In this document: one piece after another, positions 2,461-61,402 of the stretch | Layout of the letters: every line of letters begins with the position of its first letter | How positions within the stretch are numbered: position 1 is the first letter of the stretch | Virus record (IMG/VR): IMGVR_UViG_3300028797_000103 | Span: 87,685-151,684 of that record | Source: a virus | Lineage: Duplodnaviria > Heunggongvirae > Uroviricota > Caudoviricetes | DNA length: 64,000 bases | Reading direction: 5' to 3' (one strand) | The notes under the pieces: model-generated | Database searches by the model: none | What the model saw: the letters and a program-made list of their open reading frames with translations, nothing else | Told to the model about the DNA's origin: nothing | Position numbers and translations under genes: made by a program

Positions 2461-3195
2461 ATGGGAATGAAAATAGCATTTATGAGCGATCTTCACGGGT
2501 CGCTCATAGACTTTAAAGAAAAGGTTGATCTTGTTTGTATAGCCGGTGACATCGTTCCGCTTGAAATACAGAACGATGTGTTCAAATCTATAGCTTGGTT
2601 TAGCGGAAAGTTTGTTCCTTGGGCTGAAGGACTGGATTGTGCTAAAGTTATATTCATAGGTGGAAATCACGACTTCTTTTTACAGAGAATTGTAAACCAA
2701 TATTTTTCTGGAAGAAACATTGACTATTCTTTATATGAAAAAGAAAGCGCGGCGGCTGATGTGATAAAGGATAAATTGATGCTTCCGAAGAAAATTGTTT
2801 ATCTTCAGGATACAGTTTATAACTATAACCACAAAAAGATTTATGGAACACCGTGGATTCCGGAATTGAGCAGATGGGCGTTTTACAAGTCAAGCGAAGA
2901 CCTGAAAGAAGTGTTTGAAAAAATACCGGAAGACGTTGACGTCCTATTAACGCATAGTCCTGGAAAATATGTAAATGACACTGGTGTAAGTTTGCAGGAT
3001 TATAGACTTCCTGAATATGGGTCACAAGAATTGAGCGAAGCTGTATTCAAAAAGAAACCGAAATATTGGTTTTGCGGACACGTTCATTCTGGAAATCACA
3101 TTATGACAGAATATGGAGCAACGACGGTAGCAAACGTAAGCATAAAGGATGAAAACTATAGAGTTAGTTACGTCCCGCTTATAATTGAAATTTAA
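2461..3195 (+). CDS. calcineurin-like metallophosphoesterase
   Basis: Motifs SDLHG, GDIV, GGNHDF, THSPG and GHVHSGNH are present. The start overlaps the previous stop by 1 nt. Confidence 0.6.
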   Translation: MGMKIAFMSDLHGSLIDFKEKVDLVCIAGDIVPLEIQNDVFKSIAWFSGKFVPWAEGLDCAKVIFIGGNHDFFLQRIVNQYFSGRNIDYSLYEKESAAADVIKDKLMLPKKIVYLQDTVYNYNHKKIYGTPWIPELSRWAFYKSSEDLKEVFEKIPEDVDVLLTHSPGKYVNDTGVSLQDYRLPEYGSQELSEAVFKKKPKYWFCGHVHSGNHIMTEYGATTVANVSIKDENYRVSYVPLIIEI

Positions 3196-3201
3196 TTATT
3201 A

Positions 3202-3233
3202 AAGGCGTCTATAATAGACGCCTATTTTATTTT
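3202..3233. terminator. bidirectional rho-independent terminator between convergent genes
   Basis: Hairpin aggcgtcta-taa-tagacgcct followed by a T-run. Confidence 0.6.
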
Positions 3234-3323
3234 AAACAAACAGTGTAAAGTAAAAGGTGCTGGTGTGGATACAACCACCAATGGTGATGTCGCAGGCTTA
3301 GCCTTTTTGGGCTTGGATACATT

Positions 3324-5300
3324 TTATACTAATTTTGTCCAATCTATGGTTACTCCAAGCCCCTCCAAAACCTTTTGCAGAGAGTTCACCCGCGTCGTGG
3401 GATTAGTACCATCATAGCCGCCGACACCACAAATGTAAATCTCACCATTAGACGTAACTTCAAATGCATTCTTTCTATTTGTGCCAGATGTACCGATACC
3501 TATAGAATGACGTGTACTTGTGTTGGATTTATTGTATGAGCCTTCAGCATGTTCGGCTTCATTAGTAGTTCTTGTATGCACGCCTTCTGTATGAGAGCAC
3601 TGTCCATCTGCTTGTGTACCATTACCTTCTGCATGAGAGCACTGTCCATCTGCTTGTGTACCATTACCTTCTGCATGAGAGCACTGTCCATCTGCTTGTG
3701 TACCATTACCTTCTGCATGAGATGCAAATCTGGTTGCCTCTGTCTGATATCCTTCAGTATGAGATGATGCTCCACTTGCGGCTGTTTGATATCCTTCTGC
3801 ATGAGAATTATCACCACCTGCCGACGTGCCGTTTCCTTCAGCATGAGATGCAACACCAATTGCAGTAGTAGAGTAGCCTTCTGCATGTGCAGCTTGTGCA
3901 GATGCGGTTGTTCGTCCACCTTCTGAATGAGCTTGTATTGCACTCGCTATTGTACTATATCCTTCAGCATGACTTGCTCTCGCTAATGACTCAGAAGCCA
4001 CTCCCTCAGCATGACTTGCATTACCTTTTGCCAATGTTCCATTACCTTCAGCATGCGTAAACGCACCATCATTAGTGTTGGTGTGAATTGATTGTTTACT
4101 ACCTGTTCCAGCTCTTGTATTTGCACCTTCTGCGTGAGAAGTTACACCATCGGCTATAGTTCCAAGACCTTCTGCGTGTGATGCATATTGAGTTGCTTGC
4201 GTGCCTTTACCTTCAGCGTGTGATGAGTTACCGCTTGCAAGAGTTCCATTGCCCTCCGCGTGAGAAAAATATCCAGCCGTGTTTGTGTTATTTGGGTCTT
4301 TCTTCTCTCTGTTACCAGCTACTGTATTGATACCCTCAGCATGAGCTGCTTGACCAGATGCAATCGTGCCAAATCCTTCACTATGAGAAGAAATTGCACT
4401 GGCTGTTGTATTGTAACCTTCTGCATGGGATGCACGACCTAACGATTCAGAAGATATTCCCTCTGCATGGCTTGAATTACCTTTTGCTAAAGTGCCATTA
4501 CCTTCTGCGTGTGTGAATGTTCCTTCACTAGTATTGGTATGTGCTTCTTGTTTGCTACCTGTTCCAGCTCTTGTGTTTGCTCCTTCTGCATGGCTGGTGA
4601 TTCCACTGGCAATAGTGCTTAGTCCTTCAGCGTGAGCTGTGTATTGAGTGGCCTGTGTATCCCTTCCTTCAGTGTGCGAAGAATTACCACTTGCAAGAGT
4701 TCCGTTGCCTTCAGCATGAGAGAAGTCTCCGGGAGTGTTTGTGTTGTCGTGTTGTTTTTTATCTCCGTTGCCAGCTACTGTATTGATACCCTCAGCATGA
4801 GCTGCCACACCTTTAGCTAAAGTATTGTGACCTTCAGCGAAACTATTAACTCCTTCTGCTTTCGTATCTTCCCCAGTTGCTACGGCATTTTTTGCAGTGG
4901 CACTAGCCCCAGTATCTTTCTGCTGGACACTGTTATCACCGCTAGAACCTGTTTCAAATGGAGAAAATTGAAATTCTTTAGAAATGTCTACATAATCACT
5001 TTCTTGTGTTCCATCACCAGAATTGCACATATAAGTTTTATATATTCCGTCTCCTGTGTGGAATGTCAGTTTTATTCCGGCGTGTTTATGTATAACCGGA
5101 AGTTTTTCGATTGCTGTGGCTAGAGTGTATACGCTGGAATCAGTAGCCCCCGGATAAAGACGGTTTACATTGTATTCCGCTATATACTTGTCGAGAGTTT
5201 TTTCATTATCATCAACAACGGCAAAATGCTTTGTTCTTGGATATACGGAAGCGTCGTTATTTAACCTGTCCTTAAATTGTAGTATGTTGTTTTCGCTCAT
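3324..5300 (-). CDS. tail-fibre-like protein with tandem xHAEG(N/Y)xT repeats (paralog 1)
   Basis: 658 aa with about 35 SHAEG-type repeats. Its N-terminus and C-terminus (NAFEVTSNGEIYICGVGGYDG) are conserved with the ORFs at 17378-18994 and 21111-22013. Confidence 0.55.
   Translation of the reverse strand: MSENNILQFKDRLNNDASVYPRTKHFAVVDDNEKTLDKYIAEYNVNRLYPGATDSSVYTLATAIEKLPVIHKHAGIKLTFHTGDGIYKTYMCNSGDGTQESDYVDISKEFQFSPFETGSSGDNSVQQKDTGASATAKNAVATGEDTKAEGVNSFAEGHNTLAKGVAAHAEGINTVAGNGDKKQHDNTNTPGDFSHAEGNGTLASGNSSHTEGRDTQATQYTAHAEGLSTIASGITSHAEGANTRAGTGSKQEAHTNTSEGTFTHAEGNGTLAKGNSSHAEGISSESLGRASHAEGYNTTASAISSHSEGFGTIASGQAAHAEGINTVAGNREKKDPNNTNTAGYFSHAEGNGTLASGNSSHAEGKGTQATQYASHAEGLGTIADGVTSHAEGANTRAGTGSKQSIHTNTNDGAFTHAEGNGTLAKGNASHAEGVASESLARASHAEGYSTIASAIQAHSEGGRTTASAQAAHAEGYSTTAIGVASHAEGNGTSAGGDNSHAEGYQTAASGASSHTEGYQTEATRFASHAEGNGTQADGQCSHAEGNGTQADGQCSHAEGNGTQADGQCSHTEGVHTRTTNEAEHAEGSYNKSNTSTRHSIGIGTSGTNRKNAFEVTSNGEIYICGVGGYDGTNPTTRVNSLQKVLEGLGVTIDWTKLV
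3594..3722. repeat. three near-perfect 42-nt tandem DNA repeats inside the fibre gene
   Basis: The unit ...ctgtccatctgcttgtgtaccattaccttctgcatgagagca... occurs three times and encodes GNGTQADGQCSHAE three times. Confidence 0.8.
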
Positions 5301-40165: not shown

Positions 40166-40238
40166 GATCCTGTGAGACATTTGGTAGTCTGGCCGTCCCT
40201 AAAACGGTTTTATGCGGGTTCGATTCCTGTCAGGATCA
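40166..40238 (+). tRNA. putative amber-suppressor tRNA, anticodon CTA (C33 atypical)
   Basis: GATCCTG TG AGAC-ATTTGGTA-GTCT G GCCGT-CCCTAAA-ACGGT TTTAT GCGGG-TTCGATT-CCTGT CAGGATC A. Confidence 0.45.
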
Positions 40239-40245
40239 CAATAAA

Positions 40246-43287: not shown

Positions 43288-43464
43288 CTAATTCACGACA
43301 GTATTTGCAGGTTCAAGTCCTGTTCTGAGGCGGATGACGACGAACTGGTATGTAGCTTAATGGTGTTAAATCCCGTGCCAGCCTTTGTTAGGGAGTTGCT
43401 GTTAAGTAAGGTCGGCTGTTGATAAATCTGCTGTCATAGCGCTGTGGCAGTACGTGAATGATAT

Positions 43465-48682: not shown

Positions 48683-49224
48683 CAAATAAAATACAAATTT
48701 AATTTTCATGAAAACAAGAGAAATTGATGAATAATAATTTGGGGACGATATAGAATTTGACTCAAGTTGTCGAACATAATAAGCACGTCGTGCGCCGGTC
48801 ATTTAGCACGTTAATCTCGATGATCAAGAAATAGCTGACAACAGCAACTACAGACTCGCTGCTTAATCAACCGTGTTGGTTAACTTAATTCATCGGAGCC
48901 AAGGCAGCTTCGGAACGAGTGCTTCAGCAGAAGTTTTCTGTCTTCGGTATATTCTGCAACACGAAGCATCATCATTAACCGGAGAGCAGCATCGAAACCC
49001 TTCGTATCGATGTTCGCTAAATCGAAGGAAGGCTGTTCAGGTTTTGTTTCTCTTTTTCTGCCAGCAAATTATAAGAGAAAATAAACGTGTAGAAAGTTGT
49101 GTAAGAGATTTGAACACGGCGGGGCGGTTCCGCCCGTCTCCACAAATTTTGGTTCGTTTTGTCACTTTTGTTAAGTTTTTTGAAAATTTTTGCAAAAATA
49201 CTTTTTTATTTCAAATAAATACAG

Positions 49225-49237
49225 TACATTTGCAACA
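49225..49237 (+). promoter_or_regulatory. promoter box variant gTACATTTGcaac
   Basis: Followed by tcaaactgaaacgg, which also follows the box at 49338. Confidence 0.4.
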
Positions 49238-49337
49238 CCAAACTGAAACGGAAACGTTTCTTAGGTGACAAAGTTCATTGAAATGCAAAAATATTGAAAA
49301 TTTTTCGAAATTTATTTTGAAGTTTCAAAAATTATCC

Positions 49338-49350
49338 GTATATTTGCAAT
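49338..49350 (+). promoter_or_regulatory. conserved promoter box gTATATTTGcaat
   Basis: Located upstream of a ~0.9-kb non-coding stretch. Confidence 0.5.
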
Positions 49351-49354
49351 GTCA

Positions 49355-50220
49355 AACTGAAACGGTCACTCGTTGATGGTTGAAAAGTTCTTTGAAAATA
49401 AGAAATGGCGGGCTTCCCGTCAATAGGATAACTTGCGAATCCATAAGCAAGTAAAGTCGTCTCGGTGTTCACAAGATTACTGACTCGGCGGAGGAGAAAT
49501 CCTCTCCATGTGAAAGCCATTCCTCAAGCCTTTAGTGGTTTGTAAGTCCGGGCAGGGCTGATAGCTAAAGGTGCAGGCGTTGACCGCGTCTGCTTGGGAG
49601 GTAACTCCGACACAGTGGGAATGCACATGCTCAGAAAGATTGCCAATCTTACAGAGCATGTGAGGAATTTTCTAGTCCTATATGGTATGCCAATACCATG
49701 TATCAGGTGGCACTGGTATCAGAAATGGTAGGATTAACGTGAGAAGTACAGTGAGTAGTCTTGGCAGACAAAAGCAGAAAGGCGTACATACCTAATCCAG
49801 TCAAAAGCTGGTATGGTATTGGAGCACAGCCACGTCTTTCAAACGGTCAAATCTTGTGCGATGATATCTCTTATGGATGAGACAAAACATCTTAAAAGTA
49901 TTAAATCAATCAAGCAAAAGTGCTGTGCACGCTGTGTGACAATGCAGTTATCCACCTGTGATATGGTGGCTACCGAAAGTACCGCAAGGAAATCGTAGAA
50001 GCGAAAGAAGTATGCAACTAATAGGAGGGTCGCGCCTTCGAATCTCGCAAGGAGTTAGGGCAGAAACAAGTACCTTATATAACACAGTGTAGTGGTTGCG
50101 GAACCTAAATCCGTCTGCATCTTGCCTATCTCTAGAAGTAGGGATGTGTTCTAGGTCCGAAAAGGAACGAAAATGGCAAGCGATGTGGGTCACGACTCAG
50201 CCCAACTCATCAGAAAATTA
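49355..50220 (+). ncRNA. candidate structured non-coding RNA (promoter-to-terminator transcript; local resemblance to RNase P RNA conserved motifs)
   Basis: No ORF over 80 aa in any frame. The motifs GTAAGTCCGGGCAGGG, GGTAACTCC and ACAGTGGGAATG...CAGAAAGATTGCC resemble RNase P CR-I and the P8-P10 region. The transcript is bounded by a promoter box and a terminator. Confidence 0.3.
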
Positions 50221-50248
50221 AGACCGCTCAATCGAGCGGTCTTTTTTC
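50221..50248. terminator. rho-independent terminator (bidirectional)
   Basis: agaccgctc-aatc-gagcggtct followed by TTTTTT. Confidence 0.7.
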
Positions 50249-50273
50249 GTTTATATACGTTTGTAAAGTTTTA

Positions 50274-51362
50274 TTATCCGAGAGAGTCTTCTTTCATAAT
50301 CTTCATTATATATTCTTTGGACTTCTCGTCAGTGTCATAGCAAACTAATCCGGATGTTTCTCCGTGCATGTATTTGCTGTACCATACATAGAATGTGCAG
50401 GGCTTTCCTTTATATTCGCAGGAATATTTTCCCGGTTTAACAAACCCAGTTGTGTTGTATAGATTTTCTTCAAATCTCTTTTCTATTGAGAACACGTCGA
50501 AGTTCATATCCATTTCGAGTTCGCCATCTGCATAGCAGAACGCCGGTCTTACTGTAGGAACACCCTGAGTTTCATCGTAGTCTCCGAATATTACATACGC
50601 CTTTTGTTTCGGTTCCTGTTTTTCTGCTTCTATTCTTTCTGCTTGTTCGCGGCGACGCTTTGCTATTATGTTCATTGCAAATTTCTTCGCTGCTGCTGGA
50701 GAAAGATCCGGTCTTTTCTTACAAACCCAGTTGTATGTATCATAATAGTCGACGCCGAATTCTTCATTAAGATTTTCTTCTATTGATTCTCTCTTTGCTT
50801 TGTCTTTGCTCCACTTTGCGACTATCCTCTTTGCATACTGTATCTGTTCGCGCCTTGAAAGGTTACGTCTGTGTTTGGCTACCCAATCGATAGTATCGTT
50901 AAGATCATATCCGAACTTTTCGTTCATTGTTGATTCTGATTCTTGGAGCTGTTCATCGTAATCAAAGTCATCAACAATTTCTCCGGTTTCGTCGTAATAA
51001 TGATCAATCGTTGAATCATCATCAAGAAGTCTGATGAAAGGAATATCGGTGTGATTTATCTTTCCCTGTTTTCCGTCGCCCCTTCTTGCGTAACCTTCTT
51101 CTATCTCAAGTTTATGTATAAAGTTCCAGAAGTCATGACACTTATTTTCTATTGCACCGGAAAGTTCTTTTCCGCCACGTTCTCCATTGAATATGTCCAT
51201 AACAGAATCAATGGCTTTCTGTAGATTAAGTATTCTTGATTTTATTTCTTTTGGTTCGAGATACCAATCGTATTCACCGTCTGGAAGTTTTATTCCTCTT
51301 GTTTTTGAGAAATCGATATCTTCGTTCATCTGTTTTCCAGTTTTGTACAAAATAGTTTTCAT
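50274..51362 (-). CDS. hypothetical protein
   Basis: 362-aa ORF, the only minus-strand gene in the right half of the window. Confidence 0.45.
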   Translation of the reverse strand: MKTILYKTGKQMNEDIDFSKTRGIKLPDGEYDWYLEPKEIKSRILNLQKAIDSVMDIFNGERGGKELSGAIENKCHDFWNFIHKLEIEEGYARRGDGKQGKINHTDIPFIRLLDDDSTIDHYYDETGEIVDDFDYDEQLQESESTMNEKFGYDLNDTIDWVAKHRRNLSRREQIQYAKRIVAKWSKDKAKRESIEENLNEEFGVDYYDTYNWVCKKRPDLSPAAAKKFAMNIIAKRRREQAERIEAEKQEPKQKAYVIFGDYDETQGVPTVRPAFCYADGELEMDMNFDVFSIEKRFEENLYNTTGFVKPGKYSCEYKGKPCTFYVWYSKYMHGETSGLVCYDTDEKSKEYIMKIMKEDSLG

Positions 51363-56744: not shown

Positions 56745-57100
56745 CGAGATTACTCGAAGAGCAATTCTCTTGGACCGATTGAGTCGCGGTATCCGAAGAA
56801 GTACGATTCAGTTCTTTGAAATATAATAGGAAGTTCCAGCATGAAAAGGCTTCCGACGTATGGGCGGAGCATACCTAGTGAGCGAAGCGGTTATAGTACC
56901 GGCCGGTGCGCTGCAAGCAAGAGTCTAAGTTGGCGGGAATATATTGAATACCGCACGGACGCAGTATTACGAGGTCGAGCTGATGTGAAAACCATAGGAG
57001 TGATGTGAAATTCATCGTAGCGGAAAAGGTGGGATAACCCTGACGTGGTACCCTGCTGCGGGGGTGGAAAATAATGTTGGATTACACTTCCTATTTTTTC

Positions 57101-58815: not shown

Positions 58816-58828
58816 TATATTTGCAAAA
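58816..58828 (+). promoter_or_regulatory. conserved promoter box gTATATTTGcaaa
   Basis: Located upstream of the polB fragment. Confidence 0.5.
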
Positions 58829-60353
58829 AAATTACAAGTCTTACATGATAATCAATACAGAAATAAAGGATCTGACAAAAAACGGAATGCCGGTGCTGGA
58901 CAGTTATGGTCGTTGCAAACGGTTTCTTTTAATTTCATATGTTGATAAAAACGGAACCATTAAAAAATTCGTCTGGGTGATACCTGAGGAATTTATGTAT
59001 CAGTGGAAATATGCAACAAGAAACGACGTTCCGGATCCTGTATACAAGTCTTGGGATTTTAAAAACGTTGTTAAGGAACCAATAGTTGGAAACTTTTCAG
59101 AGCAGCGTGTACATGAAATGATGCTTGATTTGGTTGCATCAAATCCAGATAATCCTGAACTGAAAGAAATGTTCGAGCTGAACATACCAGAAACGACATA
59201 TGCTGATATTGAGGTAGATGTTGGAGAAGACGGGTTCCCGCTAGCGGAAGAAGCAGCTAACACTGTAAACACTTGTTCATTCGTAAGGGGAAACGATGCT
59301 TGGTGCGTTGGTCTTGCGCAGTTGACAAACGATGACATCGAGTGGATTCAGAAAGAAATTGACAAGCACGTTTCCAAACTTGGAGTAAAATATAATTTCC
59401 ATTATAGATATCATGAAAATGAGCTCAGTCTGTTGAATGATATTTTCCAGAATTTCATAGGTACATCAGAGTGTGTTACTGGGTGGAACTGGTTTGGATA
59501 TGACTGGATATATTTGACAAACAGATCAAATCTTTATGGAATGGATATAAGTTATCTATCGCCAACAAAGTCATTTACAACTTACAGACCGATGGATGCA
59601 AAAGGAAAAGATGATAACATCAGGGTTCCTATGCACAGGGGGATGTACGATTATCTAGAAATTTACAGGAAGTGGGACAAGAGAATAACTCCAAAGATTA
59701 GCAACAAGCTTGACTGGGTAGCAGAGACTGTGCTTGGAATCAAGAAGGTAGCCCATCAGCTCGGATTCCGTGACATGTGGAGACAGCAGAAAAAGGAATA
59801 TGTTTTCTATAATGTAATCGATAGCATTCTTGTGCGGGAGATTGATAAGAAACTGAAGACATCATCAACATTTTTCGGTCTCGCAAACATCATGCACACT
59901 CCGGCTTTGACCGCATTCAGTTCTACGAAGAGTATCGAAATTGTTCAGTCTGAATATCTTTACAGAGAAAAAAGAATATTCCCGAAGGCGAAACAGAACA
60001 ATAACGTTCAGGAGTATGAGGGCGCATTTGTGTATGAACCCATTCCGGGTGTTTATATTCAGGTTTGGACTGTTGACTACGCGTCTCTTTATCCTACAAC
60101 TATGAGGCAATTTAATATGTCTCCTGACACATTTATAAAGAAAGACAAGAATCATAGGAGACAGCCAGATGAGATAGTTTGTGTCAACGGTTCTGTTTAT
60201 ACTAAAAAATTCCGTGGATTCATTCCAAAAATATTGGATGACTTCTACGCTAAGAGAAAGTCGTATAAAAAGAAGATGATTGAGGCTGAAGAAACCAAGT
60301 ACGAATTGCAGGAAATATTAAAAAGCAGAAAAGAAAAAGCAACAGTCGCATAA
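58821..60353 (+). CDS. family-B DNA polymerase, N-terminal fragment (3'-5' exonuclease region through polymerase motif A); gene is split/truncated
   Basis: Exo-I-like YADIEVD and motif A VDYASLYPTTM. The ORF stops ~100 aa after motif A, and motifs B and C are absent. The listed start 58821 probably over-extends, since the promoter box lies at 58816-58828. Confidence 0.55.
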   Translation: MQKNYKSYMIINTEIKDLTKNGMPVLDSYGRCKRFLLISYVDKNGTIKKFVWVIPEEFMYQWKYATRNDVPDPVYKSWDFKNVVKEPIVGNFSEQRVHEMMLDLVASNPDNPELKEMFELNIPETTYADIEVDVGEDGFPLAEEAANTVNTCSFVRGNDAWCVGLAQLTNDDIEWIQKEIDKHVSKLGVKYNFHYRYHENELSLLNDIFQNFIGTSECVTGWNWFGYDWIYLTNRSNLYGMDISYLSPTKSFTTYRPMDAKGKDDNIRVPMHRGMYDYLEIYRKWDKRITPKISNKLDWVAETVLGIKKVAHQLGFRDMWRQQKKEYVFYNVIDSILVREIDKKLKTSSTFFGLANIMHTPALTAFSSTKSIEIVQSEYLYREKRIFPKAKQNNNVQEYEGAFVYEPIPGVYIQVWTVDYASLYPTTMRQFNMSPDTFIKKDKNHRRQPDEIVCVNGSVYTKKFRGFIPKILDDFYAKRKSYKKKMIEAEETKYELQEILKSRKEKATVA

Positions 60354-60688: not shown

Positions 60689-61398
60689 GCGCTCGTGGCG
60701 GAATGGTAGACGCAAGGGACTTAAATAAATTGAGTGCATACCGCAGGACGCTTAATGCGTGATAGATAAGATAAACAACCCAATTGGGAAGTAGCCTGTG
60801 GACGCTGGGAAACCAGTTATGTAGAACCTCCCTAAGTCGGCGAAACCTTAGCTAGTTAATGTTCAAAGAAGCGTTGAAGTAGTTGTGAAACATTGGAAGT
60901 ATAGTACCAATGGGCTGAATTCTACGGAGTGGAGAAGATTAACTTTGGTGGCAACGCCGAGCAATGTGATGGTGGTTGTAGACGGGAGCTTGTCAAAAAG
61001 GCAGGCGTAATGGTGAATTAACACTCGGAAAGAGCCGTGACCATTTAAGCAGTGTGTAGAGATCATCGAAACATTATGGAGTAGAGTAAGCCAGATATGA
61101 GTAAGTGCAGAGCTTAACGTCTGGTTGAAACAGGAGGAACCTAAGTTGAAATTATTGTATGAATGTTCCCAGTGAACCCGGAACCGAATAAACAGGCTGT
61201 GCAACTCAGCAAACCTCTTCATACAGTACCTTGCAAGATTTCAATATGGTTAAGACATGATCCAGACCACGAACAGACGTGCAGCCATAATAGTCGGGGC
61301 AGTTAAACCGAATTAGCGTGTCTGGCAGCGAAAGTTGTAGTGGTACGAAAATCCCTCGACCCGAAAGGGTCGTGTGGGTTCGACTCCCACCGGGCGCA
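60689..61398 (+). tRNA. tRNA-Leu(TAA) interrupted in the anticodon loop by a ~625-nt group-I-type intron (exons 60689-60722 and 61348-61398)
   Basis: 5' exon GCGCTCG TG GCGGAATGGTAGACGC A AGGGA CTT. 3' exon AAAA TCCCT CGACCC-GAAA-GGGTCG T GTGGG-TTCGACT-CCCAC CGGGCGC A. The intron begins AAATAAATTGAG, like the cyanobacterial tRNA-Leu intron, and ends in G. Confidence 0.7.
60723..61347 (+). other. putative group I self-splicing intron inserted between U34 and A35 of tRNA-Leu(UAA)
   Basis: The insert sits at the canonical tRNA-Leu(UAA) position with a U before the 5' splice site and a terminal G. No convincing internal ORF is present on the sense strand. Confidence 0.55.
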
Positions 61399-61402
61399 CA
61401 AT

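Follow-up and report, generated by a model that had tools for sequence, protein, structure and literature searches.

The DNA analysed here is a 64,000-nt window, positions 87,685-151,684 of the IMG/VR record IMGVR_UViG_3300028797_000103 (Caudoviricetes), and window coordinates are used throughout. At 49339-50249 on its plus strand lies the gene for a large structured RNA, set between a transfer-messenger RNA (tmRNA) gene directly upstream (48741-49145, +; Rfam, 86.9 bits) and a convergent open reading frame (ORF) on the opposite strand (50274-51362, -). Thirty-one transfer RNA (tRNA) genes, every one on the plus strand, are spread over 34.6-61.5 kb of the window, which bears out an earlier reading, made from the letters alone, that the locus adjoins a large tRNA array. 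The 0.9-kb RNA is very probably a divergent member of GOLLD, a phage-associated RNA family. This family is already known; what is added here is a divergent clade of it that falls below the Rfam cut-off.

The locus is a single ORF-free non-coding unit with its own promoter and intrinsic terminator. The elements that delimit it are these:

49225-49290 (+): upstream tandem copy of the promoter, with box TACATTTGCAA at 49225-49235, leader CAAACTGAAACGG, and box AGTTCATTGAA at 49272-49282.
49316-49349 (+): promoter of the Bacteroidota type, with a -33-like TTTG at 49316-49319, a 19-nt spacer, and the -7 box TATATTTGCAA at 49339-49349.
50220-50249 (+): intrinsic terminator, with a 10-bp stem (6 G-C pairs) and a 4-nt loop at 50220-50243, followed by a T-run.

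A sigma-70-like scan likewise marks 49317-49344, and transcription is predicted to start near 49352. The sequence-only reading had been right about a promoter box at the start of the region, but wrong to place it 5 nt before; the box falls within the opening 12 nt of the interval it had delimited. The strong terminator that it saw at the other end is present; it scores in either orientation and points toward the convergent ORF. The upstream element is a tandem duplicate of 49339-49400, comprising the promoter box, the CAAACTGAAACGG leader, and the AGTTCNTTGAA box; both copies are matched in the nearest relative (L095). The same TAnnTTTG promoter box stands 8-127 nt upstream of the RNA in 14 of 28 homologs, and the remaining homologs directly follow tRNAs, with which they are presumably co-transcribed before processing. 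We place the predicted ends of the primary transcript at about 49352 and 50249, giving about 0.9 kb, of which a core of about 820 nt (49385-50203) is conserved.

Several measures agree that the unit is non-coding and structured. As the sequence-only reading had noted, there is no credible ORF: the longest in 49150-50300 is 82 aa (code 11), and codon periodicity is absent among the 28 homologs, in which variability is 0.174, 0.171 and 0.178 for the three phases. The G+C content is 0.43-0.48 in the RNA region, as against 0.32-0.40 in the immediate flanks, and the region folds better than its dinucleotide shuffles (z = -4.0), none of 20 shuffles equalling it.

We compared 49150-50350 with all 4227 Rfam families in a permissive scan, listing matches to E <= 10. 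GOLLD (RF02032) matched 49777-50203 on the plus strand across the whole model (positions 1-416 of 416; 73.0 bits, E = 1.1e-18). The ribonuclease P (RNase P) families RF00010, RF00011 and RF00373, together with ROOL, intron and other large-RNA families, gave no match in the same scan. The sequence-only reading had named just such a scan, and a check for covariation in related phages, as the means of settling what the RNA is, and GOLLD was all that the scan returned. Its fallback, a different or novel structured RNA, therefore holds in its first half and fails in its second: the RNA is different from RNase P, but it is not novel in kind. Because the Rfam model is confined to the conserved 3' half of GOLLD, the match corresponds to that half, and about 390 nt remain for a 5' domain. 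Nine of 11 homologs scanned also match GOLLD, at 62-97 bits (E 1e-13 to 5e-24); two, L013 and L080, have no GOLLD match at E <= 1e-6. No clade member tested scored above 97 bits. With the whole clade under the 150-bit cut-off, pipelines that apply this threshold will miss it, and Rfam at gathering thresholds indeed reports nothing over the RNA region.

No relatives of the flanking 362-aa ORF were found in IMG/VR, which closed the route through synteny, so homologs were retrieved instead with exact DNA patterns taken from conserved blocks of the RNA (17-mer patterns gave mostly chance matches). This yielded 47 homologous loci, on 5 IMG/VR contigs, 41 metagenome contigs, and one contig of a metagenome-assembled genome (MAG). 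They align to the RNA at 71-95% identity, the majority of them end to end, and the flanks of the one locus so compared (L001) do not align with those of the window. A blastn search of the region against 50,697 GenBank phages gave no match.

Covariation among these copies establishes the architecture. In an alignment of 28 distinct full-length copies, the RNAalifold consensus contains 171 pairs, 92 of which show at least one compensatory double change. Paired bases occupy 97.9% of cells in this consensus, as compared with 40-45% when partners are slid by 1-3 columns; the slid controls have 18-34 pairs with double changes, and none of 500 shuffles reaches the observed values. Independently, we transferred the Rfam GOLLD structure, which derives from unrelated sequences, to the same alignment through the cmscan alignment of the window. 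The transferred structure is 85.6% paired (slid controls, 38-52%), with double changes in 34 of its 87 pairs (slid controls, 5-9), and pairing stands at 91-100% in its helices 1, 3, 4, 13 and 14. Column identity averages 0.78 in the 5' domain and 0.88-0.89 in the 3' domain. The core measures 807-837 nt in the homologs and the linker within it 32-56 nt, and the two halves are colinear at fixed spacing in 28 of 28. These results show one two-domain RNA, whose 3' domain has the GOLLD architecture, with a linker separating P13/P14 from the remainder.

The family features used for comparison come from Kretsch (2025; PMC12286853), Weinberg (2017), and a 2026 review (PMC12990946). The reference is the env-38 GOLLD, an 833-nt RNA divided into 5' (1-420) and 3' (421-833) regions and seen as a 14-mer by cryo-electron microscopy (cryo-EM) (Kretsch et al., 2025; PMC12286853). 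The covariation table in the supplement of that paper lists two non-nested pairings, 467-471:555-559 and 576-580:743-747 (PMC12286853). The parts of the RNA in the window, with tertiary pairings numbered PK1 to PK3, are as follows:

49385-49397 (+): 5'-terminal box AAGUUCUUUGAAA, near-invariant in the 28 homologs; conservation starts here.
49403-49776 (+): 5' domain of about 10 helices, from RNAalifold on 28 sequences and pair counts.
49406-49422 (+): P1 hairpin of the 5' domain (RNAalifold).
49432-49451 (+): a further hairpin of the 5' domain (RNAalifold).
49470-49476 with 49852-49858 (+): long-range helix (helix 4), CACAAGA pairing with UCUUGUG; 7 of 7 pairs covary and 95% of cells are paired.
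49580-49586 with 49844-49850 (+): PK3, in which hairpin loop UUGACCG pairs with CGGUCAA at the start of the linker.
49595-49610 (+): GNRA (GUAA) hairpin GGUAACUCC, GGAG-GUAA-CUCC (helix 12), whose stem covaries.
49624-49662 (+): long hairpin of 14 pairs (helix 13), which covaries; the string CAGAAAGAUUGCC is its apical part.
49689-49691 and 49709-49711 (+): complementary loops, GCC and GGC, of two hairpins (RNAalifold and pair counts).
49777-50203 (+): GOLLD 3' domain, P13-P27, from the match to the whole RF02032 model.
49800-49808 (+): retained contact-type loop GUCAAAAGC, likened to the env-38 contacts.
49824-49830 with 49922-49928 (+): PK1, GCACAGC with GCUGUGC, equivalent to env-38 467-471:555-559.
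49859-49911 (+): variable A/U-rich linker, the middle of J13/15; identity 0.51, against 0.88 in neighbouring parts.
49912-49921 (+): conserved J13/15 stretch AAGCAAAAGU, matching the Rfam-consensus AAAGCAAAAGU; its AGCAAAA is invariant in 28 of 28.
49942-49947 with 50115-50120 (+): PK2, AUGCAG with CUGCAU, equivalent to env-38 576-580:743-747.
49982-49989 (+): retained contact-type loop CCGCAAGG, likened to the env-38 contacts.
50024-50039 (+): retained contact-type element with a GUCGCG loop, likened to the env-38 contacts.
50044-50054 (+): retained contact-type loop CUCGCAAGGAG, likened to the env-38 contacts.

The homologs bear on each of the three tertiary pairings. PK1 is paired in 100% of cells, and 5 of its 7 pairs covary. 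PK2 is invariant and fully complementary within the clade, and in these positions the Rfam consensus reads gugaC/Gucac; between clades, therefore, the bases change in a compensatory way. PK3 has 5-7 complementary bases in 28 of 28 copies, with variants such as UUAACCG:CGGUUAA, UUACCC:GGGUAA and UAACCC:GGGUUA, and its mean score of 6.18 compares with 4.86 +- 0.18 for permuted partners, none of 300 permutations reaching 6.18. Since the long-range helix and the loop-linker pairing bracket P13/P14, they tie the two halves into one molecule. At the other end, the promoter box stops 8 nt before the AAGUUCUUUGAAA box in four homologs, which puts this box at the extreme 5' end of the transcript. No tRNA is embedded in the linker (49859-49911).

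The likeness to env-38 is one of plan. Both RNAs are phage-borne and adjoin tRNAs, both are of similar length (about 820 and 833 nt), and both run in the order 5' domain, P13/P14, variable J13/15, and 3' domain, with the 3' domain better conserved than the 5'. Most 3'-domain helices and both published pseudoknots are shared, as are the loops L14 CAAAAG, AAGCAAAAG and CGCAA and the terminal CUCAGCC. The env-38 equivalent of AAGCAAAAGU in J13/15 makes the B7 kissing contact with L20 (PMC12286853). Unlike env-38, the RNA here does not keep the outer P21 helix or the apical P20 pairs, it has AUGCAG/CUGCAU in PK2 in place of gugaC/Gucac, and its clade carries the conserved 5' box AAGUUCUUUGAAA; we found no published counterpart for the hairpin-loop:J13/15 pairing of this clade. 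The hosts would differ too, the carriers here apparently being megaphages of rumen and gut Bacteroidota. Within the family, 5' domains vary among members, and copies typically lie beside phage tRNAs. The GOLLD of Streptococcus agalactiae is about 700 nt long, and forms 10-mers from its 3' domain alone and 12-mers at full length (Wang et al., 2025, via PMC12990946). It shows that members that lack or alter P21b and 5'-domain helices still form cages, and similar variation is seen here; it differs from the RNA in the window in being carried by Firmicutes chromosomes or prophages, in its shorter length, and in which helices it lacks.

Several observations weigh against assignment to GOLLD. The score of 73 bits is about half of the curated RF02032 gathering score of 150 bits, and the primary sequence is essentially unalignable with env-38. 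Plain alignment to an approximate, error-containing env-38 sequence (815 of 833 nt) did not reach significance (5' half, z = 1.2; 3' half, z = 2.3), and an nhmmer profile search against the same approximate sequence found nothing. Likeness in the 5' domain is at the level of motifs, read by eye against that error-containing sequence: in order, an AUGGC...GUCAA start, a GGUAAC loop, AGAAAG...ACAGAG, AUCARAAAUGG, and a strand that pairs immediately 3' of P13. Helices 5, 7 and 9 of the model (the outer P21 helix and apical P20 parts) are poorly kept in the clade, and the window's own L24 loop reads GAAG, not GAAA. GOLLD homology is visible only through structure and the covariance model.

Other explanations must be set against the same data. 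The sequence-only reading had proposed a phage RNase P RNA or an RNase-P-like tRNA-processing ribozyme, next to which 31 tRNA genes adjoin, and it quoted three strings that are indeed present (49542-49557, 49600-49608 and 49612-49644). One string, GUAAGUCCGGGCAGGG, resembles bacterial CR-I according to that reading. The strings prove to be covarying stems or a GNRA hairpin. Core strands of RNase P are universally conserved and do not covary in this way, whereas in GUAAGUCCGGGCAGGG AGUCC forms the 5' side of a freely covarying hairpin (helix 10): 49545-49548 pairs with 49556-49559, and 4 of 4 pairs change on both sides among homologs, from AGUC/GGCU to GUUC/GAAC, CCCC/GGGG or GCUU/GAAG. No CR-V/P4 partner was found, a lack that the same reading had itself remarked, and the GOLLD model accounts for the entire 3' half. 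RNase P RNA (RF00010/RF00011) thus shares with this RNA its large structured character, its tie to tRNAs, and a short string, but the RNA here is twice as long. RNase P homology is refuted by the absent model match together with the covarying "CR-I" stem, and we give this explanation a negligible chance. A match to GOLLD that is superficial, with the RNA belonging instead to ROOL, OLE, HEARO or the group I/II introns, is equally hard to credit. ROOL (RF03087) is likewise a large, ornate, cage-forming RNA that goes with phages and tRNAs; it was discovered in data from the rumen, where it is common, but its sequence and fold are unrelated. None of these classes matches at E <= 10, whereas GOLLD matches end to end and its specific pseudoknots are present.

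A protein gene might also be hidden by reassignment of a stop codon, for the window encodes a suppressor tRNA with anticodon CUA (40166-40239). However, with TAG, TGA or TAA recoded singly the longest ORF is still at most 133 aa, 388 of 412 pairwise indels (94%) are not multiples of three, and the substitutions in stems are compensatory; a concealed gene here would be extraordinary. Somewhat less remote, though still very improbable, is the idea of two RNAs side by side, a GOLLD-like one at 49777-50203 and an unrelated structured one at 49385-49776. In its favour, Rfam models the 3' half only, GOLLD 5' domains are known to vary, and homology of the 5' half to a reference GOLLD is not demonstrated. 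Against this stand the pairings that join the halves (49470-49476:49852-49858, and 49580-49586:49844-49850), the constant spacing of the halves in all 28 full-length copies, and the single promoter and single terminator. Membership of one continuous RNA in GOLLD remains by far the best account of the locus.

The window looks like a piece of a very large phage genome. The PHROGs matches of its proteins are phage families, and its DNA polymerase (58821-60353) is nearest to those of Prevotella Lak megaphages, at 36% identity. The parent contigs of the homologs reach 355, 315, 235, 206, 168 and 139 kb. Within the window the promoter motif of Bacteroidota type, TAnnTTTGCAA, is present 20 times where 1.3 would be expected, an enrichment of about 15-fold. 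From this promoter type and the distant similarity to Lak phages we infer that the hosts are Bacteroidota, and the carriers would be huge phages of ruminant and gut Bacteroidota, distantly akin to the Lak megaphages. The tRNA at 40166-40239 (+), with anticodon CUA, is an amber suppressor that ARAGORN labels "Pyl". The large ORFs of the window gain no length under TAG readthrough, so any recoding would concern genes elsewhere.

The association with tRNA genes extends across the clade. Of 22 loci in which tRNAs were sought, most have the RNA within a same-strand tRNA array (L006, L086 and L094 had no tRNA in the stretch scanned); in L073, 3 nt separate the end of a tRNA-Met from the point where the RNA begins to align. 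The order tmRNA then GOLLD recurs in L095, and in L013 and L091 a tmRNA lies near the RNA, within about 1.4 kb. Among species-representative bacterial genomes, a first pattern gave 0 matches and a second gave one, L111 (contig JAFRDD010000067.1), with a copy at 2510-3325 that has 80% identity, scores 84 bits for GOLLD, and lies inside a tRNA array. This 47-kb contig was binned to a "Clostridia bacterium" MAG from goat ileum; it is probably a phage contig that was mis-binned, and for that reason it gives no reliable host.

Other elements in the tRNA array deserve mention. The box AGTTC[AT]TTGAA occurs exactly four times in the window, always on the plus strand: in the duplicated leader (49272), at the GOLLD 5' end (49386), before a stretch of 270 nt (56810), and 14 nt after tRNA-His, before a split tRNA-Leu gene (60672). 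With one mismatch allowed its count is not above chance. The box may be a shared processing or recognition signal. The split gene, at 60691-61399 (+), is tRNA-Leu(UAA)-like and is interrupted in its anticodon loop by an insert of about 620 nt; its 5' half is GCGCUCGUGGCGGAAUGGUAGACGCAAGGGACUU, and its 3' half is AAAAUCCCU followed by variable arm, T arm, and acceptor CGGGCGCA. The insert is preceded by U and ends in G, as in group I introns; ARAGORN makes no call over 60691-61399, and no Rfam family, group I intron included, matches there at E <= 1. The ORF-less, G+C-rich stretch of about 270 nt at 56810-57090 (+) lies between tRNA-Ile and tRNA-Ser, and the nearest relative carries it at 95% identity (L095 8083-8319). 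Rfam gives no match for it, its folding is unremarkable (z = -0.7), and the IMG/VR scan yielded no further homologs. Finally, a 140-nt element at 43305-43444 (+), between tRNA-Leu and tRNA-Trp, starts with the tRNA 3'-half-like sequence GCAGGUUCAAGUCCUGUUCUGAGGCG and has no Rfam match. It is 90% identical in L001 (9641-9780) and L070 (7188-7327); L001, the only contig compared with the whole window, matches it in little else.

How the RNA might work can be drawn from its characterised relatives. GOLLD RNAs form protein-free dihedral cages, with contacts through L14, J13/15-L20, L21 and L24 and with the linker toward the lumen, and the stoichiometry of the cage is set by the 5'-domain and P21 helices that are present. 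By analogy with the cryo-EM structures of env-38 and S. agalactiae GOLLD, RNAs of this clade would need no protein to fold and would self-assemble into a closed cage, a dihedral homo-oligomer held together by loop-loop and A-minor contacts, in which the linker is turned to the lumen. The contact elements of env-38 are retained (the A-rich L14 CAAAAG, J13/15 AAGCAAAAG with L20 CGCAA, the GC-palindromic L21, and the GAAR tetraloop of L24) and P21 is altered, so that a cage is to be expected, of a stoichiometry that is not predictable. On this analogy, we consider it rather likely that the RNA forms a multimeric cage.

What such a cage would do is a matter of speculation. GOLLD expression increases in the course of phage lysis, and binding to ribosomes has been reported from pull-down experiments (PMC12286853). 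The likeliest role, speculatively, is in phage takeover of translation, which we favour because the RNA is constantly embedded in tRNA arrays and here stands beside tmRNA. The cage might act on the translation apparatus during infection by binding or sequestering tRNAs or ribosomes, and such a role would explain why the RNA travels with phage tRNA and tmRNA genes; we advance a translation-linked role only tentatively, as possible but on the unlikely side. More doubtful still is a further suggestion, that the clade is a structurally distinct GOLLD subtype, in which altered P21, its own hairpin-loop:J13/15 pairing, and the AAGUUCUUUGAAA box would lead to a different stoichiometry, and in which the box would mark the structured RNAs of translation takeover as a phage signal common to them, for processing or for the binding of proteins.

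GOLLD RNAs are among the largest non-coding RNAs of bacteria and phages, and were shown to be protein-free nanocages in 2025. The clade described here adds nearly 50 sequences that standard Rfam thresholds miss, and would widen the host range of the family; it shows that, for annotating phage metagenomes, the cut-off of RF02032 is set too high. It supplies rich covariation for both domains and three tertiary pairings, as well as natural variants with which to study how the loss and gain of helices sets cage stoichiometry. The linkage to tmRNA and tRNA genes, in turn, offers a testable handle on the role that GOLLD may have in translation.

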